Source: Bacillota bacterium (GTDB taxonomy: Bacteria > Bacillota > Clostridia > Christensenellales > UBA1242). Taken from it: DNA of 64,000 nucleotides. The number at the start of each line of letters is the position of its first letter. The first letter of the stretch is position 1. Under the pieces are notes generated by a model that saw nothing but the letters and a program-made list of their open reading frames with translations, did not search any database and had not been told where the DNA came from. Both the position numbers and the translations under genes were made by a program. This document shows positions 1-36,220 of this stretch, in pieces. The stretch is taken from contig WRCD01000002.1 of NCBI GenBank assembly GCA_009784185.1, positions 132,935 through 196,934 on the forward strand, in the 5' to 3' direction.

Positions 1-3000
1 TTTGCCACAATCAACAGCGCAACAACGCTCCGCAATATTATTATGGACGCCAGCGGTCTGGATGCGCCGATTGACGCTGCAGGGGTGCAGAATGTTAATT
101 TTGGGCTGATTACGGGAATTAACTATGGCGGAAACATATACAACTGCGAAGTGATAACCGGTAAGAACCAGAGTTCTAGTTATAACGATTTTGTTTCCGG
201 AACCTTTACCAGTTTGGATTACGGCAGAATTGTGCTTAACGAACTGCGCGATAACTATAATGACAACAAAGACAAAGTGTCAACGCTGCAGTCACTCAGG
301 CTTGAAACCAGCAGAGCGGTTGGCGGCAACAATGTGTCGGTAAGCATGGGCGGACTGGTTGGCAGAAACGAGGGCTTTATAACCAACTCGCGGGTTGGCA
401 GAATAGACAACAAGATAGGAAACGCACGCAACCAAATCAGCGCAACGGTTCAGGGTATAAATCTGTTTGGTACGGGCAGGCTGGGCGGGCTGGTTGGTTT
501 AAACCTGGGCACAATAAGCAGCAGCTATTTTGCAAACGGATTGGTGGTTAGTTCCGGCAATACCGGTCAGGGCACACAAACAGCCGGTCTGGTTGGAGAA
601 AACGGTGCAGGTGCCAGAATACTTGGCAGTTATGCGGAAGGCAATATAAACAGCATAATTGTTGGTGATGAGGAAAACATTGATTTCGGACGCGCTGTAA
701 GCGGCGGGGCAAGAAGTTATGGCAGCGTGGGCGGACTGGTCCACACCAACCGCGGATTGATAGAAAACTCGTATTCAAACATGAATTTAATTTCAAGCTC
801 GGGCTCCGGTGGGTTTGTGTTTACAAACCTTGAAGGCGCAAGTATTACAAACTGCTACACGCTTAGCAAAATTGCAAGTTACAGCTTAAACAACGGTGTG
901 TTTACAGGCAGAAACAACGAATTGGACCTGCTGAACCTGGGGCAGATTACAAGCAGTTATTACTTAATCCGGGAAAACTCTAACGTGATAGTAAGTGACC
1001 TTGAGGCTGCGGTTGGAAAAAGCTTAAGCGGCTTTATTGAAGACAATGCAAGTGCGTTTGTAGGTTTTGTGTTTAAAAATGATAATGCCGCGGTAAACGG
1101 TGCGGTATGGCAGAATGTTTCTGCTCCCGATTTTGACGAAAAAGATGTAAGAATCGGGCCGAAACTGATTCAGGCAAACAACATTGCATGGAGCTATCGC
1201 GACAAAGATTACAGCTATGACCCGGCTTGTGAATATGGCAAGGCCTCCAACCCGGTTTTGATACGAAATGCTGTAACATTTAATAATGTATTTAAAATTC
1301 CGGCGCCGGGCAGCCCGGAATCAAGTCCGTATGTATCATTAAGCGGCGGCGAGCATTATATGCGCGAATGGGCACATGTAAGGTTTATATGCAACGTTGA
1401 TTTTACGGCAATTCAGTCGCAAAGCGCACATAGCATAGTAGTTAAGGGGCACATTGACGGCAATGGTATGACTCTTAGCGGCATCAGCCAGATTTTAATT
1501 ACTCAGAGCCAAGAATATGGTCTGTTTAAGCGTATCGATAACGGCGTTGTAACAAATCTTGGTTTAAGCATACGTGAAATTTCCGCCACGCAGACTCAGA
1601 TGGTGGGTGGCCTTGCCGGCAGAATAATTAACTCTTCAGTAACCGAAATAAGAATTACAACTCCTAATGTTGGCGGCAAGGTTTCCGGCGCAAACATGGT
1701 TGGCGGACTGGCAGGACTGGTAGAAGGCAAAAGCCAGATATCAAATGTAACCAGCTCGGTTTGGGTTAATGCAACAAGACAGCCTGCAACGTTAAATGAG
1801 CATTATTATTACAACCCAAGTTTACTTGCTGTGCCTGACCAGTTGTACCCATACTCTTATGCGGGCGGAATTATTGGAGTGCTTGACCTTTATGATGTAA
1901 AAGGTGAAGAGCCAAAATATGATTGGAAAGACCCTAGCGTTAATGGACTGTTGGTGTTTGGAAGCGTTCAGATTGAAGGCGAAAATGTAGGCGGTCTTGT
2001 AGGCACAATTGGCAAATCTTCATGTATTGCCGAGTCCGCATTTTATGTTTCCGAAACATCAAACTCCCAGGCGCTTGCCGGCACAAACTTTGTTGGCGGG
2101 CTTGTTGGTATCAGTCTTGGTGAAATCCACACAAGCTTTATTGGCTTTGAACCAAGCGCACAGCGTGAATGGGATAAAACAATAACCTCTGCCAATGCAA
2201 ACAATATGCTTGGTCCGTTAACCTTGTTTAAAGGAAACAGCGTTGGCATTGGAGGAATAGCGGGTCTTGTGCTTGAAGGGGTTATATCCGACTGTTACTC
2301 AAGGGTAGCTGTTTACAACACTGCCGCAATTGCAGCCGGTGGCATTGCCGGTGTAACTTACATGGAAGCTGCGTTTATAGATGCCGGCAGAAAGGGTGAA
2401 GTTAATATCGGCCTGAGTGTAGACGATGGTCTTTCCGCAGCCGGCAAAAAAACTGCAACACTAAATCAGGTGTACACAACCAGCCCGCTGTATGCAAACA
2501 AATTTGTGGGAGGGCTTGTAGGCTATGTCGGAAACGGCAAAATAGAGCTGAATAAAGCAACTGCCCTAAACAATTACGACAGCCATCTTTACGACCAGGT
2601 TACGCAAGCAGGTGAAATTAGTCTTGGCAGTACGGTTGGGTATGCAAACTTTGCTACGTCGTCTAATGAAAAAGATAACCATGTATTTGTAAACAAATCC
2701 GGCAGCGCGATTGCCTCCGGGTTGTATGTTGTGCCCAAAATCACAAGAAATTTGGTTCCGTTACCCCTTAATGAGGTAGGTAATGCTCCTTCGTTCCTGC
2801 CCCAAGGCAAAAGCGAGTTTATAGGCGGTGCAGGGCAGGATGCAACTCTGGAAGTTTCGTTTGGTGTTGTTGCAACGGTGCCGGGGCTTACTCCTTATCC
2901 GTTTGACTTTGAGGCAAACTGGAGCTTTGACCAGAGCCTGGTAAATTTAGTGTTTCCGGAGTTGGCTTTTGGTAAGGTGTCAACAGTAAAACTTATTACC

Positions 3001-6000
3001 AATGCAAGCCAGCTTGTAGACGTTGCGCGGGCGCTTACCTCTACGTACCATGTGCTTGCAGATAGCAGCAGTGGCAATGTTATAGAGGTTGACTTGTCCG
3101 ACACAAATTTATTCCCGGACAAAAAATGGACGCCGATTGGTTCGGGGGCCAGCAGCTTTACGGGCTCATTGGTGGGCAGAGACAAAGATAATAACGGCGT
3201 TTTTCCAACTATCAGATTTAAAAATCTCCCCTACGATAGCATCGGAGATGTGTACACCGGGTTTAACGGTTTGTTTGGCAGCATCGGTTCCGGCGCAAAC
3301 ATCAGCAATATAACATTGGAATTTGATGTTGCCAAGCCCCTTAGTGTAATCAGCACCGAGGTCAATGACGTGTTTGGGTTTGTGGCCCAAAAGGCTGTTG
3401 GTGCCAAGTTTAACAATGTTAATGTAAAAGTGCTTAATGAAAAACAGGTACAGCCGACAGGATTGTACGCGTTCGGCGGGCTGGTAGGAGAATCTCAGTC
3501 AAACAACTTTGTAAACTGCGGTGCAAAGTTTAATCTGGAGCGCAGTGGATATGAGGGTTCAGACGGCGATCAAAACAGAAAGAGCTCCATCTACTTTGGC
3601 GGCATATTCGGGCTTGGTAAGGAGGGTGCTAACGACATTAGTTTTACCTCGGGTATCACATATGTAGATATAAATATTGACCTTCAGGTGGCACCCGGTG
3701 CCGAGCACTACCTGTATGTTGGAGGTATAGCGGGCTCTGCCGGTAAAGTAAGAGTTTCCGGAGCAGGCATGAATGTTCCGCATGCCGCTATAAGCGTAGA
3801 TTATCGCATAGATTCGCCAAGAAACATATATGCGGGCGGTGCTTTTGGAAAGGTGGACGGCCAGTACGAAGGATGTGAAAATATTTTTATAAAAAGCGCT
3901 ATGCTGATTGCTAATAGAGCTAACTGCGAAACGGTGTATGCGGGCAGTGTGGCAGGCGAAGCCGCAAATCTGACTCTTTTAAACATTAAAGCAGAGCGGT
4001 TCAAAACGGGCAAAATTAATGTAGGCGACACACAAGCAGTTAAGTCTGCATACGTGGGTGCCGCAATAGGCAGGTATGCAACTGCATCTACATTAACCAC
4101 AGCCGAGAATATTGTAACCGACATAGATATTTTTGTATATACTCATGGCAACACATGGGTGGGCGGAATTTTTGGATTTGTGCAAAACACGGTTAACGGT
4201 CCAAGTAGCAGCACGCCGCAAGCGATTTACAACAAACTGCTCAGCAAGGGGAATATTCAGGTTGCGTGCAATAATATGAATTGGATAGCACGCGTTGGCG
4301 GAATAGCCGGCCAGACCGAAATAAACAATAAGTCCAGTGGTATTATGTTTAGCCAGTGTGCTGCAATGGGAGATGTTACGGTAAGTGGTTATTCGGAGAT
4401 TTATCTTGGCGGATTGTTTGGAGATGCCGGAATTATAATTGCCGACAGCATGGCAGCGGTTGATACAACTGCAGTATTAGGTACGCACGGCAAGCCGCAG
4501 CTGTCTATGGGCGGGCTTGTGGGATTATTAAACAACCATTTAAGAAACAGTTATGCGGTAGGTATAGTAAATCAAGGCACAACCAACCAGGCTAATGTTG
4601 GTGCGTGTATTGGCGCAAGAGGTTCTGTCAGTGATGTAATACAAAATGTTTATTACGCAGATGATTTGAGTTTAACAGCAGACAGACATGACGGACAGAA
4701 CGAAAATAATGGTGTGGTGAATATTTCATTTAAAACCGACTTGCTTGGTAAGCGAATGTATGCAAACGCAATGCTTAGCTGGCAGAATTTTGCCGGCCTA
4801 GACTTTGGACAAATTCAAAACCAGACATGGAAAAGCAAAACATCGAGTGGTGCTCTGGTTTTAACCTACCCATACCTTGCCTGGGCAGAGCAGCACTTAG
4901 GAGCAGACATAGAGACGCGGGGCAAGCTGTATCCCTTTATTGCAGACAAAGTGTTTGATAGTGCTGGGAATAACAATTCCTCTTTGGAAACCATTGCCGG
5001 CAGCTCAAACAATTACAAAGTTGTGCACCTAAACATTACTAATCCGGCAGCGCGCAGAGTGCTTGTAGATGATCTTGACAAAAACCTTGATATTAAAGGA
5101 AACATAAGGCTTATAGCCGGCGTAGGAACAGAGTTTACTGTTTATCATCTTTATGACCCCAACTATACGATTGGCAATAAAGACTTTGGGCTGTTTAAGT
5201 CGGTTTCGGAAAACAGTGCAATCAGCGGAATAACCATGCTGGCAGAAAACGTTAGCCTCTCATATGTGAACACCGAGCTCAACATTGGGCTGCTTGCTGC
5301 AGTCAATGAGGGGATAATCTATGGCTGTAAGGTTGGGGATATTCCGCAAACACCAACCACACAGCTAAGTGAGCAGGAGCCTTACGCCTCTCCGGACAGC
5401 TTCAGCAAGCTGCACCTTGCGTTTGCAAACTCCGGTGCAACAATAAATGCCGGTGCGCTGGTAGGGCAGAATAAGGGCATTGTTGCAAGCAGCTCAAGCT
5501 TTATAGAGTTTGAAATTGAGGTGCCGGAGACACCTGGGTATGGTTTGCACATGGGCGGGCTTGTTGGATTCAGTAACGCGGCGGTGGTAAAAGACTGTTA
5601 CACAAACGGCTCGGTTATGGTGTCACAGCTTTCTGTCAACGATAAGGTTTCGGGCGTAGTGGGCCAAGCTGATGGCGGATACCTGTACAGGCTGTTTGGT
5701 TATGGCGAAGTAACCAGGAAGGGCGGCAGCAACTTTGCAGCTAAAATAAGCTCGGTTGCGTTTGTCAACAGCGATACCACTACCACCGATATGTTATATG
5801 GGAACTTAAACATGTCTGCTCTGTTGGCTCTTAAAGCAAATCACCCAGACGACTCATATGTAAACTATCAAAAATTTGACTGGTATCTGACTGATGCCGG
5901 CAATGTAACGAGCCTGTTAAAGGAAAACTCATCGGCATGGGGAAGTGCCGCCGACAAAAACTACGGGCTGCCGTTTTTGGCTTGCAGTCCGGATAATCTT

Positions 6001-7392
6001 AACACAGGCAATGGAACCCCCACTGCAGCATATCATATCTGGCACGAGGGCTGGTTCTGGATGATGGCAGATTCTAAATATTACGCAAGTTCATTTATGC
6101 TGTCAAACAATATAGATATTTTAGAACCGAATAGCCCGGACATCAGTTTTTACGGAACTTTAGAAGGCAACAGCAAGACCGTAACCCTGACATATTCGCC
6201 GAAAGTGGAATCGAACGTTGCATATTGGGGGCTGTTTAAAACTAATGCGGGCAAGATAAGCAACCTTAATGTAAGGCCGGCAGCAAGCTTTAACCTGAAC
6301 ACATCAGTGACAGCAGGGGTAACCCGGCACGTGTTTGGAGGAATTGCGGCTACATACAGCGGTAATAATGCAAAATTTACGAGCTGTACCTTTACCGCAG
6401 ATGAGATTGATTATAAGCATAACGGGTCGCACGCAACCGCACCAATTGTGTACGGCGGAATTACTGCCCAGGGTGAAATCAATAGTAGCAAAGTAACAAT
6501 ATCCAAGTCATACACAAAGGTTAAGCAGGTTACGCTTGGTGACAACAACGGCGGAAGTGGCGGCAGAGTGCAAGGGATAACCGCAGGAGGCCTGGTTGGA
6601 GTATTGGAAGCCGGAAGTAAAATTACGCAGTGCTTTGCCGAAGACAACATTACCATTGCCCCAACCGGTTCATATTCCGGCGGCGGAGGTAATCCGCTTG
6701 ACTTGGCCACTACTGATGTAAGGGCAGAGCTTGGCGGGCTGGTTGGCAGAACTGCTGCAGCCAATACAGTAATAACAGACAGTTACACCTATGGCGGCAA
6801 ATTGGTTGTAGACAACAGCCATCCGGTTGTGACCGACTTAGGGAGCTACAGTGCAGGTAACTACTACAGAGCAAGGGTGTTTTTGGGTACTATAATCGGA
6901 TACACAAACGTCGAAGTGAGAATAGAAGCCTGCTATAGTTACAACTACCTAAAGATATACAAGCTTTCAAACGAGCAAACAGGTTTGCCCACAAGTCGTC
7001 GAAACCTGTATGTAGGCAATTTCTCATTCTTAACCTTTGGTGGCGGCAATATGGACAATGCTATAGGTTTCTACAGCAATTACTATGCTATTTTTGCACC
7101 GCACGGCGGCGGAGACTCGATAATTGATGCCAGCCACGAGTATGCCACCAACTTAGATTCTGATATCGAAAGGCCTGAGACACTAGAACCGCAGCCGTTC
7201 TTTACCAATTCCAACGTACTCGGCTTGCGCTCCCCCACCATTGGCGGTGGAAGTGATACCGCGGCATTCTATGACTGGTCCGGCAATATTTGGGGCAAGG
7301 TCATCCCCGGCAACTCTATGCCATACCTGATAGGTGTAACTCCGGTAAGTTTGCGTGAAGGGTCAAGGACGGGCGACAATATAAGTTTTTAG
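1..7392 (+). CDS. Giant GLUG-motif repeat surface protein, N-terminus outside the window (>2463 aa)
   Basis: Frame 1 is open from nt 1 (FATINSATTLRNII precedes the first Met at 43). Stop is TAG 7390-7392. Dozens of G-G-[LIF]-[VA]-G turns occur about every 20-25 aa (VGGLVGRNEGFITNSRV...), as in the GLUG motif family (Pfam PF07581, recalled, not searched). About 4 head motifs (...W.PIG..F.G...GNG...). No HExxH or C-terminal LPXTG seen. Confidence 0.8.
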   Translation, partial: FATINSATTLRNIIMDASGLDAPIDAAGVQNVNFGLITGINYGGNIYNCEVITGKNQSSSYNDFVSGTFTSLDYGRIVLNELRDNYNDNKDKVSTLQSLRLETSRAVGGNNVSVSMGGLVGRNEGFITNSRVGRIDNKIGNARNQISATVQGINLFGTGRLGGLVGLNLGTISSSYFANGLVVSSGNTGQGTQTAGLVGENGAGARILGSYAEGNINSIIVGDEENIDFGRAVSGGARSYGSVGGLVHTNRGLIENSYSNMNLISSSGSGGFVFTNLEGASITNCYTLSKIASYSLNNGVFTGRNNELDLLNLGQITSSYYLIRENSNVIVSDLEAAVGKSLSGFIEDNASAFVGFVFKNDNAAVNGAVWQNVSAPDFDEKDVRIGPKLIQANNIAWSYRDKDYSYDPACEYGKASNPVLIRNAVTFNNVFKIPAPGSPESSPYVSLSGGEHYMREWAHVRFICNVDFTAIQSQSAHSIVVKGHIDGNGMTLSGISQILITQSQEYGLFKRIDNGVVTNLGLSIREISATQTQMVGGLAGRIINSSVTEIRITTPNVGGKVSGANMVGGLAGLVEGKSQISNVTSSVWVNATRQPATLNEHYYYNPSLLAVPDQLYPYSYAGGIIGVLDLYDVKGEEPKYDWKDPSVNGLLVFGSVQIEGENVGGLVGTIGKSSCIAESAFYVSETSNSQALAGTNFVGGLVGISLGEIHTSFIGFEPSAQREWDKTITSANANNMLGPLTLFKGNSVGIGGIAGLVLEGVISDCYSRVAVYNTAAIAAGGIAGVTYMEAAFIDAGRKGEVNIGLSVDDGLSAAGKKTATLNQVYTTSPLYANKFVGGLVGYVGNGKIELNKATALNNYDSHLYDQVTQAGEISLGSTVGYANFATSSNEKDNHVFVNKSGSAIASGLYVVPKITRNLVPLPLNEVGNAPSFLPQGKSEFIGGAGQDATLEVSFGVVATVPGLTPYPFDFEANWSFDQSLVNLVFPELAFGKVSTVKLITNASQLVDVARALTSTYHVLADSSSGNVIEVDLSDTNLFPDKKWTPIGSGASSFTGSLVGRDKDNNGVFPTIRFKNLPYDSIGDVYTGFNGLFGSIGSGANISNITLEFDVAKPLSVISTEVNDVFGFVAQKAVGAKFNNVNVKVLNEKQVQPTGLYAFGGLVGESQSNNFVNCGAKFNLERSGYEGSDGDQNRKSSIYFGGIFGLGKEGANDISFTSGITYVDINIDLQVAPGAEHYLYVGGIAGSAGKVRVSGAGMNVPHAAISVDYRIDSPRNIYAGGAFGKVDGQYEGCENIFIKSAMLIANRANCETVYAGSVAGEAANLTLLNIKAERFKTGKINVGDTQAVKSAYVGAAIGRYATASTLTTAENIVTDIDIFVYTHGNTWVGGIFGFVQNTVNGPSSSTPQAIYNKLLSKGNIQVACNNMNWIARVGGIAGQTEINNKSSGIMFSQCAAMGDVTVSGYSEIYLGGLFGDAGIIIADSMAAVDTTAVLGTHGKPQLSMGGLVGLLNNHLRNSYAVGIVNQGTTNQANVGACIGARGSVSDVIQNVYYADDLSLTADRHDGQNENNGVVNISFKTDLLGKRMYANAMLSWQNFAGLDFGQIQNQTWKSKTSSGALVLTYPYLAWAEQHLGADIETRGKLYPFIADKVFDSAGNNNSSLETIAGSSNNYKVVHLNITNPAARRVLVDDLDKNLDIKGNIRLIAGVGTEFTVYHLYDPNYTIGNKDFGLFKSVSENSAISGITMLAENVSLSYVNTELNIGLLAAVNEGIIYGCKVGDIPQTPTTQLSEQEPYASPDSFSKLHLAFANSGATINAGALVGQNKGIVASSSSFIEFEIEVPETPGYGLHMGGLVGFSNAAVVKDCYTNGSVMVSQLSVNDKVSGVVGQADGGYLYRLFGYGEVTRKGGSNFAAKISSVAFVNSDTTTTDMLYGNLNMSALLALKANHPDDSYVNYQKFDWYLTDAGNVTSLLKENSSAWGSAADKNYGLPFLACSPDNLNTGNGTPTAAYHIWHEGWFWMMADSKYYASSFMLSNNIDILEPNSPDISFYGTLEGNSKTVTLTYSPKVESNVAYWGLFKTNAGKISNLNVRPAASFNLNTSVTAGVTRHVFGGIAATYSGNNAKFTSCTFTADEIDYKHNGSHATAPIVYGGITAQGEINSSKVTISKSYTKVKQVTLGDNNGGSGGRVQGITAGGLVGVLEAGSKITQCFAEDNITIAPTGSYSGGGGNPLDLATTDVRAELGGLVGRTAAANTVITDSYTYGGKLVVDNSHPVVTDLGSYSAGNYYRARVFLGTIIGYTNVEVRIEACYSYNYLKIYKLSNEQTGLPTSRRNLYVGNFSFLTFGGGNMDNAIGFYSNYYAIFAPHGGGDSIIDASHEYATNLDSDIERPETLEPQPFFTNSNVLGLRSPTIGGGSDTAAFYDWSGNIWGKVIPGNSMPYLIGVTPVSLREGSRTGDNISF

Positions 7393-7407
7393 TGGCCAGC
7401 AATAATA

Positions 7408-7433
7408 AATCCCCCGTATGGGGGATTTTTGTT
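7408..7433 (+). terminator. Rho-independent terminator of first giant gene
   Basis: AAATCCCCC-GTAT-GGGGGATTTTT: GC-rich hairpin followed by a T run, 16 nt after the stop. Confidence 0.75.
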
Positions 7434-7461
7434 TGACTATTTTTGCAAATTTATGTACTAT
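7433..7461 (+). promoter_or_regulatory. Sigma-70-type promoter of the 5278-aa gene
   Basis: TTGACT (7433-7438), 17-nt spacer, TACTAT (7456-7461). About 87 nt upstream of the TTG start. Confidence 0.5.
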
Positions 7462-7548
7462 TAAAGGTGTGGTAAAATAGTGAAAGAATATAGATTTTTA
7501 AATAAAAAGACGGATAATATTTAAACTAAAGCTAAAGGGGAAAAAAGT

Positions 7549-19500: not shown

Positions 19501-22500
19501 CCTATTGGCATAAGCCCCGCCGAAAGCGGCACCACATTTGCAGGGATGATAGGCAAAGCCGATAAGCAGTACTACATCCAGACCACAAATGCCGATGAGA
19601 CTGCAATTCCGGTTGATATGCTCCAGTCTGCAAATATAAGTTTTGGCGGGTTCTTTAACGGCAACGGATACACGCTTGCTGCCAAGCCGTACGCAAGCAT
19701 TTGGGCAGGTTCCGGCCTGCAATCTGCAGGTAAGCTGGGTGTGTTTGACAGCATAGGCGGATTTGCTGACGAAAACAACATTACGTTAACCCAGAAGGCA
19801 AATGCGGCTTTTGTAACAGGCGTAACGGTAACGGGCATTGATATAGACTTCCGTTCAACCCGGGAGACGTTAAACGTTGGCGGACTTGCTAACCGTATTG
19901 GCAGGTATAGCATTGTTGCAAGCACATCGGTTGAAGGCAATATAAATGTGCTGAGCGATTACAAAGTTGCTGCCGCGGCAGCAGACTCCGCTATAAATGC
20001 CGGCGGTTTTGCGGCAGAAAACCACGGGCAGATTATAAACAGTGCATCCCGCGTAAGCATTACTGTTGGCGGCAACAGTGCTGCCAACATAGGCGGATTT
20101 GCGGGAGTTACTAAAGGCGGCAGTTTTGCAAGCTACAACGGCACGTATCACTTTGGCAGTATAACCGACAACACAACCGAAGTTTTGCCGGTAAACAAAT
20201 CTAATGCCGGCGGCTTTACCGGAAACGAGGTAGACTTTGCTGCAAGAGCATACAACTCATATGCCGTATCTGATATAAGCAAAAAAGCCGGGGCTACCGG
20301 CAGCCTTGGCAGCTTTGGCGGAGCAGCCGGCTCTGTAACGCTTCTTTCGGGCAGCAATGTAAGCTATGACAGCCGGCTTGGCAGCGGCCAAACTGATGCG
20401 GCAGGCATAACTCCGGATGTGCAGAGGAAAAATATAAGTGAAGACTCCGGCGGAGTAAGAATCAGCTGGTTTAAAGCGGATAACAGCATTAACGAGGGCT
20501 GGCCATATATCCCGGATGTGGATACAATAAACACTTCCACCGGAATAGAACCACGAGCTGCAGTAGCTACAGGCAACGGAGACCCCGACAAGCCATACCT
20601 TATAAGAAGCAGCGGTCAGTTTGAATGGATGGTAAACAACTCGGGCACAGGCAAACACTTCAGCCTTGAAACTGATGTTAATGTAGCCGGGTATGGCTTA
20701 ACCAGCCCTAACTTTAGCGGAACCTTGCTTGGCAACGGTCATACGGTAAGCGGACTGACACAGGCATTGTTTACTAATATTACCGGAAAGGTACATCAAC
20801 TGGGAATTATCAGCGAATCAAACACGTCACATTATGCGCTTGCAAGCGAAACACTAACTGCAGGGAGCAGCGTAACGGAATGTATGGTTGAGAGCGGACC
20901 GGCAGCTAAAGGATTTGTCAGGACTAACGACGGAATGATAGAAGACTGTTATATTGTTTCAGATGCAATTACTTTAATCCTTAACGGAAGCGGTCAGACA
21001 AAAAGAGTTCGCAAGGCATCTGAATTAGAATCAATCACTACATACGAAAGTCTGATAGTGAAAACCGAAGGAAAAGAGTTGCTGCCGGTGTTTGGCACTA
21101 TCTGGGGCATGATGCCGGATTCTACAGCCAACGGTTTAGAGAGTGCAATTAAGGTGCTGGCGCCTCGTCTGCTGGCTTTTGAGAAAAAGGCCTCCGATAT
21201 AGATGTGTCGGACACATTCCTGCAAGGCACCTACATTACTTCATTAGTTGTTGAAATTGCAACAAAAAAAGAGTTTGTTAAATACGCAAATTATATAAAC
21301 AAGCATGGTGCATCGGTTTTAGATGCTGTCATAAACAACGATATTAATTTTGCCGGACACCTGTTTGCGCCAATTAACCAAGACAGCAAAAACGGTGACC
21401 GAATTATTCTTAACGGCAACGGCAAGACATTGCTGAACCTGGCCGTTTTGGGCAATGAAGAAATGGGCGGTCTGTTTGGCGCAACAGCCGGTGGCCAAAC
21501 TGGCATCAGCAGCATTAAAAACCTGAACCTGGTTAACAGTGTTTCATACGGTAAAAATGCCGTTGGCTTACTGGTTGGAAATATGCGCGGTGATATTGAC
21601 TCCGTTATTGACATCGTAGAAGCCAAAAACAGTGTGGTATATGCCAGCGGAGACAAAATTGGCGGCATTGCCGGCAATGTGGAGCAAGGCGGAAAAATAA
21701 CGAGCCCAACATTGGTTAACTGCTATGTTGACGGAGGGAGTTCTGTTGGCGGCGTTGCCGGTATATTGAGCGGACTTAATACAATATCCAAACCAATTGT
21801 GCAAAACGCCAAGATAAACTACATATCAACACAGAAAGGAACCGACATACCTGATACACTTAAAGAAGTGGGCGGAATAGTTGGTGCTTCCAAACTCACA
21901 ACAAACACAATAAGCCACACAACAGGCTCATACGCGATAGTTGCAGATGCAGCTACTGTTGTATACGGATACTCGTCTGTTGGCGGAGTGGCCGGAGTTA
22001 ACGGGGGCGATATTAAGTGGCTCAGGTCTGACGCGGCAGTAAACGCCGTGTATATCAGTGGTAAAAACGGCCATGATGTTATTAAAGGATACAACAGTAA
22101 CATCGGTGGAATTGTGGGGGTCAACTCTACCCTCAGCAATATTACGGAAGTAGAGTTTAAAGGAACGGTTAATAAACCGCTGACTAATCCTCTATTCCCG
22201 CCGTTTGATATAACTACCGCAAACAATGTTGGCGGAATTGCGGGGGACAATGCAGGAAGTATTAGCTGGAGTAAAACAACAGGGGCCGAGGTGCATGGAA
22301 TCAGTAATGTTGGAGGCATTGCGGGGCTAAACTCCGGCATAGGCAACATAAACAACTGTACAAACAATGCAAATGTGTACGGAGCAAGAAACGTTGGCGG
22401 TATTGCCGGCAAGGTTGTTGCAACGGCGCCGGGGCAGTTAGGCACTCCATCGGTTTCCAAGTCGGCCAACCTGTTTGGCAAGGTTGAAGGCAGACATCTT

Positions 22501-23385
22501 TTGTGGTTTCCAGCAGGTTATTGCTATGAAACATACAATATCGGCGGATTGGTTGGGCTTTTAGAGGGTAATCTGAGCGAAAGTTATGTAAGCGGTGACG
22601 GTGTTAATGTGTCTGGCGGCTATAATGTTGGCGGTTTGGTTGGCATGGTAACCGGTGCGCGTGACCAGACCGGCACTGAGTTTGTAAACGGCAGAATCAC
22701 CTATTGCTATAGTTTACTGGGCAATACGGACAGTGTAAGTTATGGCTGCGGAGAAGATATGACAGCCAGAAACGCAGGCGCTTTTGTGGGGTATCTTGGA
22801 AGCAACTCATATATGGCCGAAGTGTTTGGTAATGCCAATATAGTTACAAGGCTCTCAAACTTTGACACTTTGCCGGGCTTTACCGAGTCTACCGGCACCT
22901 TAGACACGACAGGTACAAGAGGCTATGGTGATATAGCAACGGGATTGAACGGCGCGGTAATTGAGGGCGGCTCGCCAAGCAGCAATTATACAGCATCAGG
23001 CGCTACCGTTATAACGGTGGTACCGACAGCGGTGCCGAATGGCTTTAGCAAAACAGTGTTTAAGTGGGGTACTGGCACATTTGATATTGATGCTAATGTA
23101 TACATGGACTCAGGCGGAAATGCTGTGGCGCCTACGCCATATGTAAACTCAACAAGCTACTACTATCTTGATAGTGCAGACCATGACATTGCATCAAATG
23201 GTAGCGATGATGGGCACAGATACATTCTTGTTTCCGGCAAATATGTGCGTCTGGCGGCGGGTGAAGAGACGGAGCAAACAATATATTACCGTTCGCTTGC
23301 AGACTATCGGTCGGCATCATATGTCACAGAGAGTGCATATTGGAAACTGGCTGCAGGCAAGGTAGTTTTGGCCTGGCAATCATAA
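7549..23385 (+). CDS. Giant lipoprotein (5278 aa): Ig-like tracts plus at least 7 GLUG-type solenoid modules
   Basis: TTG start preceded by an AAAGGGGA SD. N-terminus MKKFALYICLCILSSVLVLAGC is a signal peptide plus lipobox L-A-G-C. Big_2-like Ig segments are present (e.g. RVSSSNSNIVAVHQSV...GTVVIEVVS). Seven head motifs lie near nt 10423, 14549, 15961, 17965, 19483, 20578 and 21254. G-G-x-x-G turns run throughout. Stop is TAA 23383-23385. Confidence 0.85.
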   Translation: MKKFALYICLCILSSVLVLAGCGNPLDGLSVSAQSEKILITGGVKTIALEINADNENLKSATITADITGGARHLSRLANFTSTQPDKVAVTDTTIIDGKSVATITAIKPTVAEDSVFIRVTSRDSSQILDIVRVTVKKDIDNFFLKSAGAVGVPVGEPTVVMPASYFGFSPIDTSETGLLYTIDGPGASYSNHPSSQPITFSSPGVHTAFATSAAKPDMKIVLFTIRAYTKLTTSNVSLSRLDQHQPVITELTLTKNSGVQGANYAILQINGPAGEVLDISVTDSAGALGKSLWHTINQANQTIELYGTGIVSTTLNISVCVAGVINPQFLPLSLPVKVIDLPESIVFNSPHDSQPEITVYTVANYQSSGTFGQLLIPVLTPTNADDTRFGIRVISGDTSSFVVRAGNNAETPVNLDIVRPFDSNTKLWLAHTDPKTGEIELEIYAFARENNPYSSSLTRRITVLLKHGVQTIDVTSGLNSAGNTIALQLGAGPDRQIDFTPVPINADTRDIRVSINDPSIADIVDKEITYIESYINTGPLAGELYEAGRFFIVPKKAGKTFITFWASTGLSKRIEIEVVAVPEANGIKIWPADGQGSVVADTIPKTLAEGTLQEIHVSSSRNIQLQNLFTPFDSSVTGFTFTNAETAVASISNSSPATTWIFSRSSGRVVVTPTVYFKIVDENFDIVSDSRILPDITIVVYMPVSGIETSARQVQLYMDTGGRSPYTTELSVAELAVSVFPSVATTKASSAVWHFSGSQNYVRLVGASGGVVVGDKVKIEIVPNASLSGTYTATLVVTISDYNRVFAQEISVILRHSTPVSYVMVDNYHMNDGIYFEERQGLYPVNQTHNFTIIPTIVPSSATNQQIFYLVYDKVNDVWERKTGATSSYIRLVENQNGRMVIYPISAGESQVYVVAADRLLKRVEDVTATSLTNDILTNTDAHSWVRLNITVSNGSKENPYRINTVQDFKDINKAMDKHYELRKSIDMSGEANWTPIGTNTQPFTGTIRGFGNLQRVTGIRMQNIFSAAGGTQDEYLSRYGIFRYLGNSLNYATITNIEFVIEHIDVNVGSSGLSEIYIGGLAGEMRANLNNVSVIIKKVTLNTTNGGSTYVGSLYFGGIAGLNQTKVSGANTGVINTDVAILSTEINTGTTPAFIGGIAGINTGDIGNPGMTAAFNTVIGGITVSGNKASVGGIAGINGIVGNNDSSVRISGALTDGRLQNTNAGTGSHAGGIAGQNLGSISYSDASMRVSGFYNVGGIAGMQFHGRMEYCSFKAYDDNKRGADGFYLSASGNVGGLVGFMSVGVIKYSYAISYFVSQIDFIPTGFWGDIFLTGNTEVNAGGLVGITLENNTENHIFNSFSSLNVGVVSGLSEMNIGGLVGLSDEDQWLYIYDSYADCVFKLPAVQPLLNVGAIIGKAVGFVPTLSNIYAAIDGVTDPVGDGSFVNGTNSNVYIKAPVTDDIYAPLYYLLSDEDMRKKSSFVWFDFNSLRPVWIPPTAETYPQLLTEGGNALKEPVIEQFIVDVKDLKPLNDSGELNNAIAVPHPAKARVVLVYVKDASFSLADLINCKTIPEEAKANVRVSSSNSNIVAVHQSVSLDNVRLNVLATGTVVIEVVSRVNLSVKFELEICVIEGYSKFQLWGSVDMNPAGDTIQKDNYLNIKYGSQHTLVAQFTNSSTRVGAGVRVAVEDGDESYFEVMGASGPLSWTKEDDKQVVYLPASSPLIFNTLKAETEGIEVSVTPCVVGWFDKLGALEPTYVLISEQTVEFTLRICQGATSLAVTPDSAVIEPKDSQTVSLLAKTDKKDDKFTLEIWDGSVKLEEKDGVYGGILGVNWFDKQFFCGSEELRANIQLSLIDKKITKQVTYIIIVSIESWNGESIKRMFELTFIPQSVDRLDMVHFADAVTDANGVVANEIPGAGYIPSNTIVAGDFGLLRIDIAPYFADVDYVEITSSQAAGDVISFDQRIMYIEKDQFRYRMYQEGVSIIPNGIKITNLWSKDGLDDKDNPILVFDGSIYIRTVIRSATSLASSFTVTVRVVGHDHERTEQLVLAVDAMPQLTVTYPGYNRFGSAYIADGTSIGNNLTVSFDARGGAVSLVPGSPSIEGAKSGSGIEMTRDPNNSRIYVIYVQEGNIGSKFVVETTIERIVNGQRRYHTVEIPFTVVDIVIDSLGVKGVSGGVYSAAYAGGKSYPMEVSFAASSLRYNLDTDTNIDVLNSIEQLFVRINGGRLSGGTQLNYWGFRTGQNSNGDFTYGLPQHGGLTHVSKISGADDIGIYNYSPNGISNSENVRLSVIYDYNEEGELTLRDDSFAGVRLEAMTYFNFNFYQHTSPDSPIPVYNVNELRAMLPYQDYILLNDIKLPNEWRPLDIAINSLDGNGFNILFETEVGVFNRTDSNANNEQNLGLFSVVYENTLLKNITMWLEGTDIRQNAVALTTVNFGVIAGTNRGTITNCAVISDGLLKGDDISGITLEAANRANDTHNIGGLVGVNLGTITHSRVQGINITAYGNVAGLVAQNYSYISACYYAYGEIKNTASSNQTGNVGTSGLVGVNHNMAKIIQSYAGSREPTNEAKHASFIASSVRAAGFVYENFGTIEDCYSNMEIESDSRSSGFAFINRENGVINRSFSISKLLESLSAHTPFIGTEADVLNPSNNFNPTGVNDCFYLLGNFTVAGKNIDPAREISSYEFTQPDVFSGYGLSRNLAGAWHEFSGVWVIPNSTNSYFRIGSSVGAGTSSYIQLVAPNMIANPSRELRLEYSYIDPSTGQMVYQYSSNYGQRFEVTGTGTDNTRAKNDPFGRRVIVDYDPWLIYNAAGLNIAAEKDQSANDGIMKGAYRLIRDIDLNDLYRPADGSAATVLETTKYEFWGDFNGNGLSINNLEITIRVGVDTNSTGLFKSVYTPPRYNDISRLNRVDAPVANVSNLNITVSEILAGNTTYVGALAGRVENSNLINISVSGNNIVVGQNIVGGVAGLVTGMSRAININSNLSVSAVFSQQDGVTGASLYADDLYNFFEISTDVKWQKGEWQKGEWDGEEWIEWEEDKWKWIEWEEAKWVSERVHASDERHAHNRLNYVGGVFGIVDLAKHSGDDKENLKDAKSSLVSHITGFGSSKVIGENAGGLFGLIGAETYAANLYKIAGDGGYIKSLQFAGGIAAENRGIISFASVTYENDAFTLTQNEVDNAEWGVMAAEGIARNYFQGTPFAVGGLVGYSYGLKSGTKISGMIEKSYSRVHVYNTGANVAGGIVGVMTGGDLKSVYTTGSVRAGPVDPSVGGLVGAIYDFIDLVVKKIIVNPYEQILKDDYEYFKDGDPTPVNEETFKTLSIINFAVAMNNWSYLDFNYYKTMADGFSPKIGGLVGDISDEKLLLSAHNDASATNFFVSEIYALPTVGGVLPALTAGQTIELKAIGTAGVADILKAAKEMTPAEFMAMQGTSSTALTAKQKVFGGWDRLTYNITGPEKFPVIDLRAATSEIEVRDETDLRQIYWHMDKTYRLTRDIELKGGWTPLGDVYYPFTGTLESMPPSTAGGTGTAYTISGMTIDKSFSFYNGLFGATKNAKISNIQLKNVKISANFNKNENTYVGALVGKAKNTKFSNILIDAKITTNAAFAGGLVGHAQKGALNANGTEKLYYINNIIVGADIELISSEPDGNVRMDTTPASAGVLAGYLELYNVKGVYASGKIDATGFVCGVKLGGLVGETSGSEFKYTHTDVNIIDDEFGLLQNEIPSAGIGGFAGEIISSHITNSYAGGSISINIVKQMTNSSEFRVGGFAGFVSSGTFIGDSMAAGNITLDSGLATGLDGGTYTQVGGFVGEFKSDSKLYGTEDFNIMYSISIVSIRNFSLFGVKESAAGKVDAFTSSPLSKVSIDYASVYYDTYMALIGTSCHNELAKETRFFVEDRLSGEFLNSSGNFGQNGMQWRKANSNTKQDSEGVKTAYYVPEVKAETTVFMFEITPNVEFSQIFTNKVNANLGATTSGHGTKVNPIGISPAESGTTFAGMIGKADKQYYIQTTNADETAIPVDMLQSANISFGGFFNGNGYTLAAKPYASIWAGSGLQSAGKLGVFDSIGGFADENNITLTQKANAAFVTGVTVTGIDIDFRSTRETLNVGGLANRIGRYSIVASTSVEGNINVLSDYKVAAAAADSAINAGGFAAENHGQIINSASRVSITVGGNSAANIGGFAGVTKGGSFASYNGTYHFGSITDNTTEVLPVNKSNAGGFTGNEVDFAARAYNSYAVSDISKKAGATGSLGSFGGAAGSVTLLSGSNVSYDSRLGSGQTDAAGITPDVQRKNISEDSGGVRISWFKADNSINEGWPYIPDVDTINTSTGIEPRAAVATGNGDPDKPYLIRSSGQFEWMVNNSGTGKHFSLETDVNVAGYGLTSPNFSGTLLGNGHTVSGLTQALFTNITGKVHQLGIISESNTSHYALASETLTAGSSVTECMVESGPAAKGFVRTNDGMIEDCYIVSDAITLILNGSGQTKRVRKASELESITTYESLIVKTEGKELLPVFGTIWGMMPDSTANGLESAIKVLAPRLLAFEKKASDIDVSDTFLQGTYITSLVVEIATKKEFVKYANYINKHGASVLDAVINNDINFAGHLFAPINQDSKNGDRIILNGNGKTLLNLAVLGNEEMGGLFGATAGGQTGISSIKNLNLVNSVSYGKNAVGLLVGNMRGDIDSVIDIVEAKNSVVYASGDKIGGIAGNVEQGGKITSPTLVNCYVDGGSSVGGVAGILSGLNTISKPIVQNAKINYISTQKGTDIPDTLKEVGGIVGASKLTTNTISHTTGSYAIVADAATVVYGYSSVGGVAGVNGGDIKWLRSDAAVNAVYISGKNGHDVIKGYNSNIGGIVGVNSTLSNITEVEFKGTVNKPLTNPLFPPFDITTANNVGGIAGDNAGSISWSKTTGAEVHGISNVGGIAGLNSGIGNINNCTNNANVYGARNVGGIAGKVVATAPGQLGTPSVSKSANLFGKVEGRHLLWFPAGYCYETYNIGGLVGLLEGNLSESYVSGDGVNVSGGYNVGGLVGMVTGARDQTGTEFVNGRITYCYSLLGNTDSVSYGCGEDMTARNAGAFVGYLGSNSYMAEVFGNANIVTRLSNFDTLPGFTESTGTLDTTGTRGYGDIATGLNGAVIEGGSPSSNYTASGATVITVVPTAVPNGFSKTVFKWGTGTFDIDANVYMDSGGNAVAPTPYVNSTSYYYLDSADHDIASNGSDDGHRYILVSGKYVRLAAGEETEQTIYYRSLADYRSASYVTESAYWKLAAGKVVLAWQS
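16611..16714 (+). repeat. Intragenic tandem repeats encoding a Trp/Glu-rich insert
   Basis: GTGGCAAAAAGGCGA occurs twice (16611-16640). A 30-nt unit AATGGATAGAATGGGAAGAGG.CAAGTGG. occurs twice (16655-16714, 28/30 identical). Together they encode KWQKGEWQKGEWDGEEWIEWEEDKWKWIEWEEAKW. Confidence 0.9.
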
Positions 23386-23394
23386 AAACCATTA

Positions 23395-23427
23395 AAGAGC
23401 GGCATATTAACATATGCGCTCTTTTGC
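23395..23427 (+). terminator. Rho-independent terminator of the 5278-aa gene
   Basis: AAGAGCGGCATAT-TAA-CATATGCGCTCTTTT: long hairpin plus T run, 10 nt after the stop. Confidence 0.7.
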
Positions 23428-23548
23428 ATTTAATACTTAACACTTAATACTTAATAATGACGGATTAATTGTGTTTTGTAGACTTGTGGAGCGTAAGCGG
23501 CCTGCAATTTATAATTTATATTTGATAATTAATAATTGAAAATTAGTA

Positions 23549-23577
23549 TTGACTTTTCCCTTATTTAGATTTATAAT
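23549..23577 (+). promoter_or_regulatory. Sigma-70-type promoter of the 971-aa gene
   Basis: TTGACT (23549-23554), 17-nt spacer, TATAAT (23572-23577). An AT-rich UP-like tract lies upstream. Confidence 0.6.
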
Positions 23578-23611
23578 ACATACAGACAAAATACGTTAGG
23601 GGTTAAAAGAT

Positions 23612-26527
23612 ATGGTTTTAAAGCGGTTTTTGATATTTCTGGTGGTTATTCTGGTAGGCCTTAGTATTGGGCTTACAACTTATTATATGCTTCAGAACGA
23701 AGAGAATTTATCAATCAGAAACACAATTGTTTATGTAAACACATTAGAGTATGTAACGGTTGAAGTAGTCAGCGGTAATTTAAAGGCCGGTACAACGTTT
23801 GAACTGGCTACTGTTTCACCGCTTTTAGAAAAGCAGGCGGACGGCAGATTTTTTACTAAAGCCGGCGGAACAGCGGTTATTACATTAAAAAGCAGCAACA
23901 ACAAGTTTAACGGACAAACCTGTACGGTTATAATCGGTGACGGCAGCGAGGACTATCCGTTTGTTATACGCTATTACGGCGATATGACGGACATAGGCAG
24001 TGCAGCCCGCGGACTGGACAAAAACTATATTATGCTAAACGATATTAATCTGGCCGATCAAAACCCGAATCAGTTTGTGCCGGTTGGAAACGGAGACCCT
24101 ATCGGATTCTCCGGCGTGTTTGACGGCAATGGTTTTAAATTCCACAACCTTAAAATTACAGAACCTACGGGAGCAGCCGGCGAAACCGGTTTCCCTGAGA
24201 CTCCTGTTGTTATAACAAATGCGGGGCTGTTTGCTAAAATTGCAAAGGGCGGCGTTGTTAAAAACTTTGATATTAACAATGTAACTGTTTCCGGAGGTTA
24301 TCAAACAGCCGGTTCTATTGCGGGAATAAACCAGGGTACGGTTGAAATGGTTCGTGTTACGGGCGGCGTAAACGGCAAGGTGGAATCAACCTTTGCATCG
24401 TCTAGTGTAGGCGGAGCGGTTGGAGCATTAGAGTCAGTCAGCGAGGTTGCAAGAATCAGCCGTGTCAGCACTAACCTTACCGTAACAGGAAAGGAAAATG
24501 TTGGTGCAATTGCCGGTGAAAACCGCGGCAGCCTGATTGTAAACTGTTATGCAACAGGCGCTGTTAACGGCATAAGCACAAGTGCCGTTACCGGCGGAAT
24601 TGTTGGGCTTAACGTGTATGTAATAGCTCCCAACAGTGATACCTTTAAAGCTAATGTAATAAACTGTTATACCGCATTAAGCATTGACGGGCAAGGCGCT
24701 TTCAGCGGCGCAATTATTGGCCGTAATACAGACATTGGCACCGAAGAAGAAAATGTAAACCGTATTTACGGAAACTATTACCTGCTGGCAAACAATCCGG
24801 CGCTTAACGGTGTTGGCGGCGTGCCGGATGCGGGCAGCGGCTTTGTAGGCACGGTTGCCAGCTTGCTCTCAGAACTTCAGTCTAAAGAGCACTTCAAAAC
24901 TTATACCGCAGCTCATGGAAATTTACCGGTAGCATGGAACTTTGTTGACGTCTGGAGCATAAACGCACAGGTTAACAATGGTATGCCAACCCTGGTTTTC
25001 AGCAAATCCAGAGTGCCTGACGGCGTTTGGGACCCGGATGAAGATTTTTACAGCACTATTAATGATGCGGCCGGCTTTAACAACATCCGTGACAGGTTGG
25101 ACGGCAACTTTACAATAGCTAATCATATTGACCTAAGCGGCTTTGAATCATGGGAGCCTATCGGTACCAGAGATGCTCCGTTTACCGGAAACATTATTGT
25201 TGAAAAACAAGGCAACGGTAAGTATTGGGAAATCCAAAACCTTAAAATAGGCTGGTGCTGGCTTGACACAGGATTGTTTGGAGTTATCAGTGAAACAGCA
25301 ACACTTACGGGCATTACTTTGGTTGGAGTAAACATTACAAACGACCTTGGCATTAAGCATAGTGCGGGAGTAAGCGGCGTAAACATTGGCGCAGTTGTTG
25401 GACTGTCTCGCGGCACCCTGGTAGATTGCTCCGCAATTGGTGCAGCAGGAGTAAACAACGGACGCATTAACATAAACACTAACGCTACCGACAACCACGA
25501 TGTTAACCTTGGCGCTATTGTTGGAAGACTTGACACAGGCGGCACCGTAACCACATCCGGCGCAGGCGATATAACTACCAACAACAGTAACCTAGCATTG
25601 TCCGGCGGCTCGGCTGCAGGCAAGCTGTGGAACGTTGGCGGAATTGCAGGACTTAACAACGGAGATGTTAGATTTGCAGGCTTCAGCGGCAGCATAAACA
25701 TATCCGGCACCGCTAATGTAAACGGCGGCGGAGTAGTGGGCGAAAACTACGGCAGAGTTGTTTCAAGCAAGGGTATGGGCAGCATAGTTCAGCTTAACAT
25801 CAGCAGCGAGACTTTTGCGGGCGGACTTGTTGGTAAAAACCAGGCAAATGCAAGAATACTGTACAGTCAGGCAGCGGGCGGTATTTCCGGCAAAACTGCG
25901 GGCGGACTGATAGGCTACAACGAAGGGCCTAACGGAAGCAGCAGCATGGAAGAATGCGGAATTGCAAGCGGAACCGTAAACGGTGACCTTGTTGGCGGAC
26001 TTGTAGGATACCATTACCGCGGCATAATTACAAACTGCTTTACACTTGTTACGCTTAGCGGCAAGGTGATGGGCGGATTTGGCGGTATTGTTGCCGGTAC
26101 AAGCGACAATATGGGCAACAACATAAGTACCGCAAACATAACGTATTGTTATGCGGGAGTCAGGTTTAACGCTCCGGGAGGCGCCGGAACGGCATATTAC
26201 GAAACATCAAGTGAAATCCGTAAAAGCTGGACGCATGCAGTAATGGTGTTGGATATGAAATCAGGCGACGGTGATATCCGTGGTAAGATTGGCGGATTTG
26301 TGCTTAACAGTATTATCAACCAGGAACGTGCGGGCAGTGCAATACGGCAGAATACTTCATACCATCTGTTTGGAATTCAGCTTGATACTCCAAACGACGG
26401 GCTGAGAAACGATGCGCAATGTAAGCAGTTTGCCACATTTGCCGACCGAGGATTCAGCTTTGCCGGAACATGGACTATGACCGGCGGCACAGACGGTTAT
26501 CCGACCTTGGCAAGAATGATGAAGTAA
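23612..26527 (+). CDS. Membrane-anchored GLUG-motif repeat protein (971 aa)
   Basis: AGGGGT SD then ATG. N-terminal TM/signal anchor RFLIFLVVILVGLSIGLTTYYML. Two head motifs (..FVPVGNGDPIGFSGVFDGNGFKFHNLKI; ..WEPIGTRDAPFTGNI..). Many GG[LIA][VA]G turns. Tails VWSINAQVNNGMPTLVF and GTWTMTGGTDGYPTLARMMK. Confidence 0.8.
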   Translation: MVLKRFLIFLVVILVGLSIGLTTYYMLQNEENLSIRNTIVYVNTLEYVTVEVVSGNLKAGTTFELATVSPLLEKQADGRFFTKAGGTAVITLKSSNNKFNGQTCTVIIGDGSEDYPFVIRYYGDMTDIGSAARGLDKNYIMLNDINLADQNPNQFVPVGNGDPIGFSGVFDGNGFKFHNLKITEPTGAAGETGFPETPVVITNAGLFAKIAKGGVVKNFDINNVTVSGGYQTAGSIAGINQGTVEMVRVTGGVNGKVESTFASSSVGGAVGALESVSEVARISRVSTNLTVTGKENVGAIAGENRGSLIVNCYATGAVNGISTSAVTGGIVGLNVYVIAPNSDTFKANVINCYTALSIDGQGAFSGAIIGRNTDIGTEEENVNRIYGNYYLLANNPALNGVGGVPDAGSGFVGTVASLLSELQSKEHFKTYTAAHGNLPVAWNFVDVWSINAQVNNGMPTLVFSKSRVPDGVWDPDEDFYSTINDAAGFNNIRDRLDGNFTIANHIDLSGFESWEPIGTRDAPFTGNIIVEKQGNGKYWEIQNLKIGWCWLDTGLFGVISETATLTGITLVGVNITNDLGIKHSAGVSGVNIGAVVGLSRGTLVDCSAIGAAGVNNGRININTNATDNHDVNLGAIVGRLDTGGTVTTSGAGDITTNNSNLALSGGSAAGKLWNVGGIAGLNNGDVRFAGFSGSINISGTANVNGGGVVGENYGRVVSSKGMGSIVQLNISSETFAGGLVGKNQANARILYSQAAGGISGKTAGGLIGYNEGPNGSSSMEECGIASGTVNGDLVGGLVGYHYRGIITNCFTLVTLSGKVMGGFGGIVAGTSDNMGNNISTANITYCYAGVRFNAPGGAGTAYYETSSEIRKSWTHAVMVLDMKSGDGDIRGKIGGFVLNSIINQERAGSAIRQNTSYHLFGIQLDTPNDGLRNDAQCKQFATFADRGFSFAGTWTMTGGTDGYPTLARMMK

Positions 26528-26557
26528 AAAATCACCCTTCGGGGTGATTTTTGTTTT
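26528..26557 (+). terminator. Rho-independent terminator
   Basis: AAAAATCACCC-TTCG-GGGTGATTTTTGTTTT, immediately after the stop. Confidence 0.8.
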
Positions 26558-26569
26558 AAAAGATTCCCC

Positions 26570-26598: not shown

Positions 26599-26629
26599 TA
26601 TGCAGATTAACAAAAGGGGAATAAGCGGG

Positions 26630-36210: not shown

Positions 36211-36220
36211 CAACAGTTTG

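Follow-up and report, generated by a model that had tools for sequence, protein, structure and literature searches.

A tandem locus of giant GLUG-repeat proteins, probable surface fibrils, in a Christensenellales genome

What kind of protein would a gut-type bacterium encode in three adjacent genes that together take up two-fifths of a long stretch of its chromosome? The question is raised by a 64,000-nucleotide (nt) stretch of DNA from a Bacillota bacterium (Clostridia; Christensenellales; UBA1242; assembly GCA_009784185.1, contig WRCD01000002.1, positions 132,935 to 196,934), hereafter called the window. An initial annotation, made from the letters of the window, had read the three open reading frames (ORFs) at its start as a paralogous arsenal of surface fibres or adhesins and as the best candidate in the window for an undescribed envelope system. 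We find that their products are GLUG-repeat beta-helix surface proteins, none of the three being an M26 peptidase, an LPXTG adhesin or an SLH protein. With a probability of roughly 60%, we take the locus to be a conserved one encoding giant, Sec-exported and membrane-tethered surface proteins that act as non-catalytic adhesion or binding fibrils.

The three ORFs are intact, lie on the + strand (as do all features of the locus given below) and have the coordinates first reported: gene A (1-7392), gene B (7549-23385) and gene C (23612-26527). They hold 2463, 5278 and 971 codons, a sum of 8712 where more than 8,700 had been claimed, and the locus covers 26527/64000 nt, or 41%, of the window. Gene A has no stop codon in nt 1-42 and its frame is open from base 1; because its first ~400 residues are the back end of a module and align with a middle portion of B, we conclude that the gene is cut at its 5' end by the window edge and that only its 3' part is present. 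A search with window 1-1500 for related loci in genome and metagenome contigs gave no match, and full-length A was not found in the protein database. Gene B starts with TTG and encodes a predicted lipoprotein of 5278 amino acids (aa). The 971-aa product of gene C is NCBI entry MCL2540142.1, 'hypothetical protein FWE53_01755' of a Firmicutes/Bacillota metagenome-assembled genome (MAG).

To find the modules of these proteins we used profiles built from both modules of the C family, which match B at up to 80 bits (E = 2.5e-26). They place module heads at residues 113 and 480 of C, at residues 959, 2337, 2828, 3474, 4025, 4347 and 4594 of B, and at residues ~468, 1027, 1650-1697 and 2029 of A, which also has the partial module at 1-400. 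The count of about 4 + 7 + 2 modules in the initial annotation therefore holds for B and C, and for A holds for the four complete modules but misses a fifth, truncated one. In nucleotides, the modules are A0 (truncated, 1-1200), A1 (1249-2970), A2 (2980-4878), A3 (4924-5979) and A4 (6022-7335); B1 (10420-12069), B2 (14545-15948), B3 (15964-17943), B4 (17962-19473), B5 (19486-20511), B6 (20584-21228) and B7 (21244-23382); and C1 (23948-25006) and C2 (25043-26524). The shared head motif that had been described aligns in all 13 complete modules as P.xI....Y.L..DI.L...W.PIG...F.G...GNG..I..L....GLF..I....I.N. Each module is made of an N-terminal cap (P.xI...Y.L..DIDL..W.PIG..F.G.fDGNG..I.nL..GLF), ~8-12 rungs, which carry GG[LIV][VA]G.N.G.I.N[CS]Y, and a C-terminal cap, W....G[YW]P.L; by regular expression, W...G[YW]P.L closes at least nine of them. 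The rung motif G[GA][LIFVM][VAITLF]G occurs 21 times in A, 40 times in B and 10 times in C, against 0.7-1.4 occurrences per protein expected from residue shuffles (1.4 for B). Its median spacing is 38 aa (interquartile range 31-41.5), rather than the ~20-25 aa first proposed.

These rungs belong to a known repeat. Pfam GLUG (PF07581, gathering score 20.5 bits) matches A at 41.1 bits and C at 23.3 bits, above the cut-off, and B at 19.2 bits, just below it, which together with a confident beta-helix model of C bears out the assignment to GLUG that the initial annotation had suggested checking. The AlphaFold2 (AF2) model of C, made from an alignment of 14 C orthologs, has a mean predicted local distance difference test (pLDDT) score of 81 and consists of a transmembrane (TM) helix (residues 2-29), a small beta-sandwich (32-109) and two all-beta solenoids (113-465 and 480-971) built of short regular strands. 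A Foldseek search of the PDB with this model returned only three entries at E <= 1e-3: 3N6Z (BACOVA_03286, 'putative IgA1 protease'; E = 8e-5, TMt 0.62), and the Streptococcus pneumoniae IgA1 protease (IgA1P) entries 7JGJ and 6XJB (E ~1e-4). Gemella IgA1 protease came just below this line (7UVK, E = 2e-3; 7UVL, E = 6.5e-3). Searching the PDB sequences with the C-family profile recovered the same proteins, with 3N6Z matched at E = 1.8e-11, head motif included, and residues 106-333 of an IgA1P chain, the beta-helix of the N-terminal domain (NTD), at E = 8e-11. Homology of the modules to the beta-helix region of the IgA1P NTD is therefore clear by both profile and fold. That beta-helix (residues ~781-1070) is where the Fab of IgA1 is bound, and it moves as a gate for the active site (PMC7695701); a survey of solenoid proteins had earlier tied 3N6Z to GLUG repeats (PMC4021314). 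From the fold and profile matches, the modules are homologous to a beta-helix of known structure that binds protein and has no catalytic role, and those of A and B are, by homology, probably beta-helices too. Peptidase_M26_N (PF05342) also touches B, at 27.2 bits against a cut-off of 27.7 and over only 45/250 columns; at E <= 0.01, no Pfam domain beyond GLUG and M26_N was found in A, B or C. Big_2, another family put forward for checking, is not detected by Pfam, and only the small N-terminal sandwich of C (23699-23947) shows a weak structural match to Big_2/SraP/Rib-type immunoglobulin-like (Ig-like) domains.

Module C2 carries an invariant G..YYET....R motif (C residues ~859-870, window 26200-26260), whose Y862 and E864 are among the very few invariant polar positions of the C family. 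The region of this motif is modelled with low confidence (pLDDT < 50 at 856-893).

Beta-helices are not confined to binding proteins, and the modules might instead be enzymes (polysaccharide lyases, hydrolases or depolymerases), with each giant a single chain that holds several enzymes at the cell surface to degrade glycans. Enzymes of PL1, PL3, PL9 and GH28, and phage depolymerases, classically adopt the parallel beta-helix fold, separate modules could hold separate specificities, one viral protein annotated 'pectate lyase superfamily protein' gives a weak match (E = 5e-4, probability 0.6), and the invariant Y862/E864 pair of C2 could be counted in favor of a catalytic role. However, Pfam and NCBIfam yield no lyase or hydrolase family match, the nearest relatives in structure and sequence are the non-catalytic IgA1P NTD and 3N6Z, and no carbohydrate-active enzyme (CAZyme) or sugar-uptake gene is adjacent to the locus. 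Conservation, both in the invariant columns of the C family and between modules, falls mostly on Gly and hydrophobic residues and not on the acidic or basic residues (Asp, Arg, Lys) of a catalytic site. We consider an enzymatic role unlikely.

The anchors first described in B and C, a lipobox LAGC in the 5278-aa protein and an N-terminal TM segment in the 971-aa protein, were both recovered. The N-terminus of B (7549-7614) is a textbook lipoprotein signal, MKKFALYICLCILSSVLVLAGC, with the lipobox LVLAGC (the criterion being a signal peptide that ends in [LVI][ASTVI][GAS]C). That of C (23612-23698) is a K/R-flanked hydrophobic helix kept across C orthologs (...LGLTTYYF...), in which no obvious cleavage site was found, a pattern compatible with a signal anchor and an extracellular position for most of the protein. 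A, B and C are predicted to be exported and membrane-tethered, the anchor of A lying outside the window. Motif and domain searches of the three proteins, which agree with the initial annotation on HExxH, LPXTG and SLH, gave no HExxH or HxxEH, no LPXTG-type LP.[TA][GNA] motif or C-terminal hydrophobic tail, no C-terminal TM segment and, in Pfam and NCBIfam scans, no SLH (PF00395), CAZyme, toxin or catalytic domain. Peptidase_M26_C gave no match in A, B or C, and the NCBIfam ZmpB model gave only a 20-bit fragment against a cut-off of 3000 bits. We rejected a protease on the lack of HExxH. A prophage tail fibre was also rejected: the context holds no phage genes, and the viral fold matches are to the same 'IgA1 protease-like' helix.

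Outside its signal peptide and its modules, B contains two long regions of another kind, an orphan beta-rich region (7615-10419) and a beta-sandwich-like spacer (12070-14544). Neither (B residues 23-957 and 1508-2332) has a Pfam match, searches at E <= 10 giving noise only; BLAST self-comparison of the spacers found no internal repeats, and a word-based homolog search with B 1-960 found no relatives. An AF2 model of residues 1510-2340, made with five weakly similar segments, is mostly strands at a pLDDT of 43.6, and in Foldseek this low-confidence model resembles strings of Ig-like sandwiches: the surface-layer (S-layer) proteins Sap and SbsB, the C-domains of AgI/II, and PrgB. The model hints that the spacers are beta-sandwich arrays, probably Ig-like.

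How did such an array arise? BLAST aligned A 1-785 with B 2407-3249 (26% identity, E = 5e-35) and found further collinear A/B segments at the same offset of ~2400 residues. In a z-score matrix over all 14 modules, reciprocal best pairs ran across the two genes at equivalent positions (A0-B2, z = 26.8; A1-B3, z = 41.8; A4-B6, z = 7.1), whereas pairs within a protein, B1-B4 (z = 20.5) aside, mostly scored z = 0-8, the highest being B1-B7 (11.2). Collinear alignment together with cross-gene best pairs indicates that A and B are whole-gene paralogs from an old tandem duplication; the paralogy first proposed is thus genuine for A and B, and C shares the module. By these sequence comparisons, the module array is older than the A/B duplication. 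The modules have diverged so far that C module 1, used in phmmer with iteration, detects no other module, and family profiles were needed. At the DNA level we found no repeats longer than ~50 nt, and those present are rung-motif codons of 60-77% identity. The lack of long DNA repeats and the divergence of the modules lead us to set aside recent duplication, a repeat-collapse artefact and the concerted evolution that the initial annotation had raised as a possibility. Within module B3 lies a Trp/Glu/Lys-rich low-complexity insertion, DVKWQKGEWQKGEWDGEEWIEWEEDKWKWIEWEEAKW (B residues 3019-3055, window 16603-16713); by eye, no such W-rich stretch is seen in A1, the positional counterpart of B3.

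A search of 1.84 billion representative proteins placed the locus among many relatives, with 5259 clusters matched at E <= 1e-3, of which 134 also pass E <= 1e-30; they include many end-to-end C-like proteins (950-1000 aa) and many giants in which 10-19 stretches match. Three contigs, L018, L019 and L020, carry the closest C relatives, at 52-53% identity, and all three keep the order of the window: B ortholog, C ortholog, spoVT and a murJ-like flippase, followed by two HU genes, dus, Na/Pi, pgk, tpi and pgm. The B orthologs of these contigs are 34-35% identical to the C-terminal 800-1040 aa of B, and that of L020 is 5381 aa long. The B-like giants P0048-P0055 (2400-4200 aa) are collinear with B, second spacer included, and have no precomputed Pfam annotation. 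One B-like giant is solitary among housekeeping genes (L002), and one lies ~8 kb downstream of mfd (L007). A tandem arrangement recurs in L008 (1-18628; Logan assembly SRR31228066), where B-like giants of 4685 aa and 2875 aa lie directly upstream of rpoB. The first of these yields the same offset of ~2400 residues, from which a full-length A of ~4650-4870 aa is predicted; the second starts with a lipoprotein signal, and in ENA and Logan assemblies its cluster has 10 members that are near-identical to it (90% identity).

Giant repetitive genes in MAGs assembled from short reads are prone to mis-assembly, and the ORFs might be repeat-induced chimeras or decaying pseudogenes. We regard this as highly improbable. 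Beyond rung-motif codons the DNA has no repeats longer than ~50 nt, the ORFs stay open for 7.4, 15.8 and 2.9 kb, NCBI, ENA and Logan independently yield the same protein, and L020 encodes an ortholog of similar length. The gene order kept in L018, L019 and L020, the tandem giants of L008 and the lack of long DNA repeats together indicate real genes under selection.

At 26-35% identity, C orthologs are also found farther afield, in 'Christensenella sp.' and in MAGs of uncultured Clostridia sampled from the gut of deer, rabbit and other sources. There they hold another fixed position, after eno, tyrS, UPF0029, recX, acpS and mazF and before MBL, SDR and spoIIE genes, with no giants beside them. 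C is the fastest-diverging gene of this eno-spoIIE block (26-35% identity, against 57-69% for enolase and TyrRS), the usual pattern of exposed surface proteins. No conserved partner gene accompanies the C orthologs; L003 and L005 have small ORFs upstream, these being unrelated, and the neighbors are housekeeping genes. Two genes near C orthologs are of separate interest. In L005 (7032-9221), a 729-aa protein encoded upstream of the C ortholog has a prepilin-type N-terminus, KGFTIVELVIVIAVIAILAA, and a remainder that is repeat- or beta-helix-like by eye; it may be a giant pseudopilin-like protein. In L003, a 737-kb metagenomic contig, a heliorhodopsin gene (PF18761, 8553-9344) lies two genes upstream of the C ortholog.

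Tandem genes for giant beta-helical exoproteins superficially recall the CdiA or Rhs-type arsenals of contact-dependent toxin delivery, in which a beta-helical stalk carries a C-terminal polymorphic toxin. The C-termini argue against this: A ends right after a module tail, and B is collinear with its orthologs to the last residue, at 34-37% identity. No toxin gene, small immunity ORF or two-partner secretion (TPS) transporter was found near the locus, and the organism is of the monoderm-type Clostridia. We give toxin delivery hardly any weight.

The three genes appear to be transcribed separately. As the initial annotation had noted, terminator-like hairpins with T-runs follow A (7407-7428; the top match of the terminator scan, -17.3 kcal/mol, z = -4.2) and B (23394-23424; -13.9 kcal/mol, z = -3.6), and sigma-70-like promoters precede B (TTGACT-17-TACTAT, 7433-7461, 9/12 consensus positions) and C (TTGACT-17-TATAAT, 23549-23577, 11/12). 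A further hairpin with T-run, missing from its list, lies after C and before spoVT (26528-26557, AAAAUCACCCUUCGGGGUGAUUUUUGUUUU); the whole 72-nt intergenic stretch (26528-26599) folds at -17.9 kcal/mol (z = -2.5). The promoter of C is the top-scoring promoter-like site in a 20-kb scan (7200-27100). In the relatives, an equivalent hairpin with T-run is also found 3' of the B orthologs of L018 and L019, and L019 has TTGACA-17-TATAAT at the position equivalent to the C promoter. Promoter consensus and hairpins suggest three independently transcribed genes, and the near-consensus, sigma-A-type promoters suggest vegetative rather than sporulation-specific expression.

Directly after C, as first annotated, comes the boundary gene spoVT (26600-27181, +; Pfam SpoVT_C), followed by a MurJ/SpoVB-type flippase gene (27181-28761, +; Pfam Polysacc_synt). 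These are syntenic markers of the locus and not functional parts of it. No dedicated secretion, assembly or anchoring gene was seen downstream in the window, which for secretion and assembly is in line with the initial annotation, and in the relatives' loci examined these and glycosylation genes were absent as well.

Conservation and promoters of this kind could also mark structural components of the envelope, such as a fibrillar coat, an S-layer substitute or a wall spacer, with C as a core membrane-anchored protein of Christensenellales. C orthologs of many MAGs share a fixed syntenic position, relatives retain the order B, C, spoVT, the promoters are near-consensus and of housekeeping type, and the low-confidence spacer model best matches the S-layer proteins Sap and SbsB. 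Yet the proteins have no SLH or other wall-binding domain, the spacer model supports no more than 'strings of beta-sandwiches', and the orthologs diverge very fast, where lattice-forming contacts would be expected to constrain sequence. A purely structural role is, in our judgment, doubtful.

Beta-helix homology and membrane tethering, with no protease motif or wall anchor, leave surface fibres or adhesins as the most reasonable reading; in this the initial annotation stands, though the claim is still one made by homology. We propose that B would be tethered to the outside of the cytoplasmic membrane by its lipid anchor and C by its uncleaved signal-anchor helix, and that the chains would project through and beyond the wall, showing many different beta-helix faces. 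The modules would be non-catalytic ligand-binding units, by analogy with the N-terminal beta-helix of IgA1P, their only characterized homolog, and in a gut-type habitat each protein would serve as a multivalent fibril for adhesion or binding. If its seven helices measure ~5 nm each and its ~1750 spacer residues form ~4-nm sandwiches, B might, as a rough estimate, reach a length on the order of 100 nm. An extension of the chains past the wall, a binding function and the nature of any ligand are put forward here as likely.

Several points weigh against adhesion or binding fibrils. To our knowledge, no multi-module member of the family has a demonstrated ligand, nor is any close relative known to bind one. 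The beta-helix of IgA1 protease does its work within an enzyme rather than as a free-standing adhesin. An unrecognized activity could be hidden in the first ~940 aa of B, which have no relatives by word search, the spacers were not modelled with confidence (pLDDT 43.6), and expression is deduced only from consensus promoter matches. The fixed housekeeping neighborhood of C orthologs, near sporulation genes, fits a core envelope role as well. One may go further and suppose that the C family (~950-1000 aa) is a core envelope factor of Christensenellales-type Clostridia, fixed next to sporulation or cell-cycle genes (spoVT here, spoIIE in relatives), and not an adhesin, and that the collinear A/B giants are expanded derivatives of it, which form a lipid-anchored fibrillar coat that would replace S-layer or LPXTG systems in this lineage. 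If true, Gram-positive cell surfaces could be built in yet another, distinct manner; we hold it to be improbable, and continue to favor adhesion or binding fibrils.

Elsewhere in the window, a pair of HU-type genes (28800-29400) follows the murJ-like flippase and is kept in 3/3 relatives (L018, L019 and L020). A trans-translation cluster comprises RNase R (36150-38372), transfer-messenger RNA (tmRNA; 38904-39260, Rfam 138.6 bits, tag peptide ANYNKPALAVAY) and, between them, a 150-aa ORF (38434-38886) that is a candidate smpB by position. Two proteins have no Pfam match: a 445-aa protein (39675-41012) whose N-terminal TM segment leads into a coiled-coil-like region of high charge, and a 607-aa soluble protein (49425-51248) encoded between transketolase and PFOR.

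With no partner genes seen downstream or in the relatives' loci examined, 5259 related clusters and a family already catalogued, the phrase 'undescribed envelope system' overstated the case. The class is known as GLUG and Peptidase_M26_N, has a solved structure and is widespread, and our addition to it is incremental. What is new is the equivalence of the module with the beta-helix of 3N6Z and of the IgA1P N-terminus, the recognition of the giants as collinear orthologs and paralogs, not shuffled repeats, and the synteny of B, C and spoVT in relatives, with a positionally conserved C family. Giant GLUG proteins fill a large share of the coding sequence in some uncultured gut Clostridia and are nearly unannotated ('hypothetical protein', many without a Pfam match); a usable annotation and tractable single modules, C1 and C2, follow from these results. 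Should the modules bind host or dietary ligands, they would be major determinants of Christensenellales-type gut attachment.

Among known systems, the closest in fold is BACOVA_03286 of Bacteroides ovatus (3N6Z), a single beta-helix of ~340 aa with a head (GNG..PY.I....Q......Y..L..DIDM...W..L...FDGd.H.I.N) and GGIAG...I.NCY rungs like those of the modules here. It represents a single module of a Bacteroidota protein, whereas the window proteins chain from two to at least seven divergent modules with spacers and a membrane anchor. The M26 IgA1 metalloproteases (ZmpA; 6XJB, 7JGJ, 7UVK) have an N-terminal beta-helix homologous to the modules; unlike them, the window proteins are without the M26 middle and catalytic domains, HExxH, G5 domains and LPXTG, and where the IgA1P helix gates an active site they have nothing to gate. 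PfbA of S. pneumoniae shows a right-handed beta-helix at work as a Gram-positive surface adhesin (PMC3718772). The parallel is one of function only: our searches matched PfbA neither in sequence nor in fold, and it is LPXTG-anchored with a single helix. GLUG proteins themselves have been treated as putative adhesins or surface proteins (PMC9723798, PMC3617157, PMC12937337), among them 15 membrane-bound, adhesin-like proteins of Methanimicrococcus blatticola (PMC9723798) and an LPXTA-anchored protein of Bacillus cellulosilyticus (PMC3617157); our literature search on GLUG found passing mentions only, and no functional study of a multi-module GLUG protein. These GLUG 'adhesin-like proteins' share PF07581, a predicted surface location and an origin in gut-associated organisms with the window proteins, which differ from them in being much larger (5278 aa), lipid- or TM-anchored, and encoded in a conserved tandem locus as collinear paralogs.

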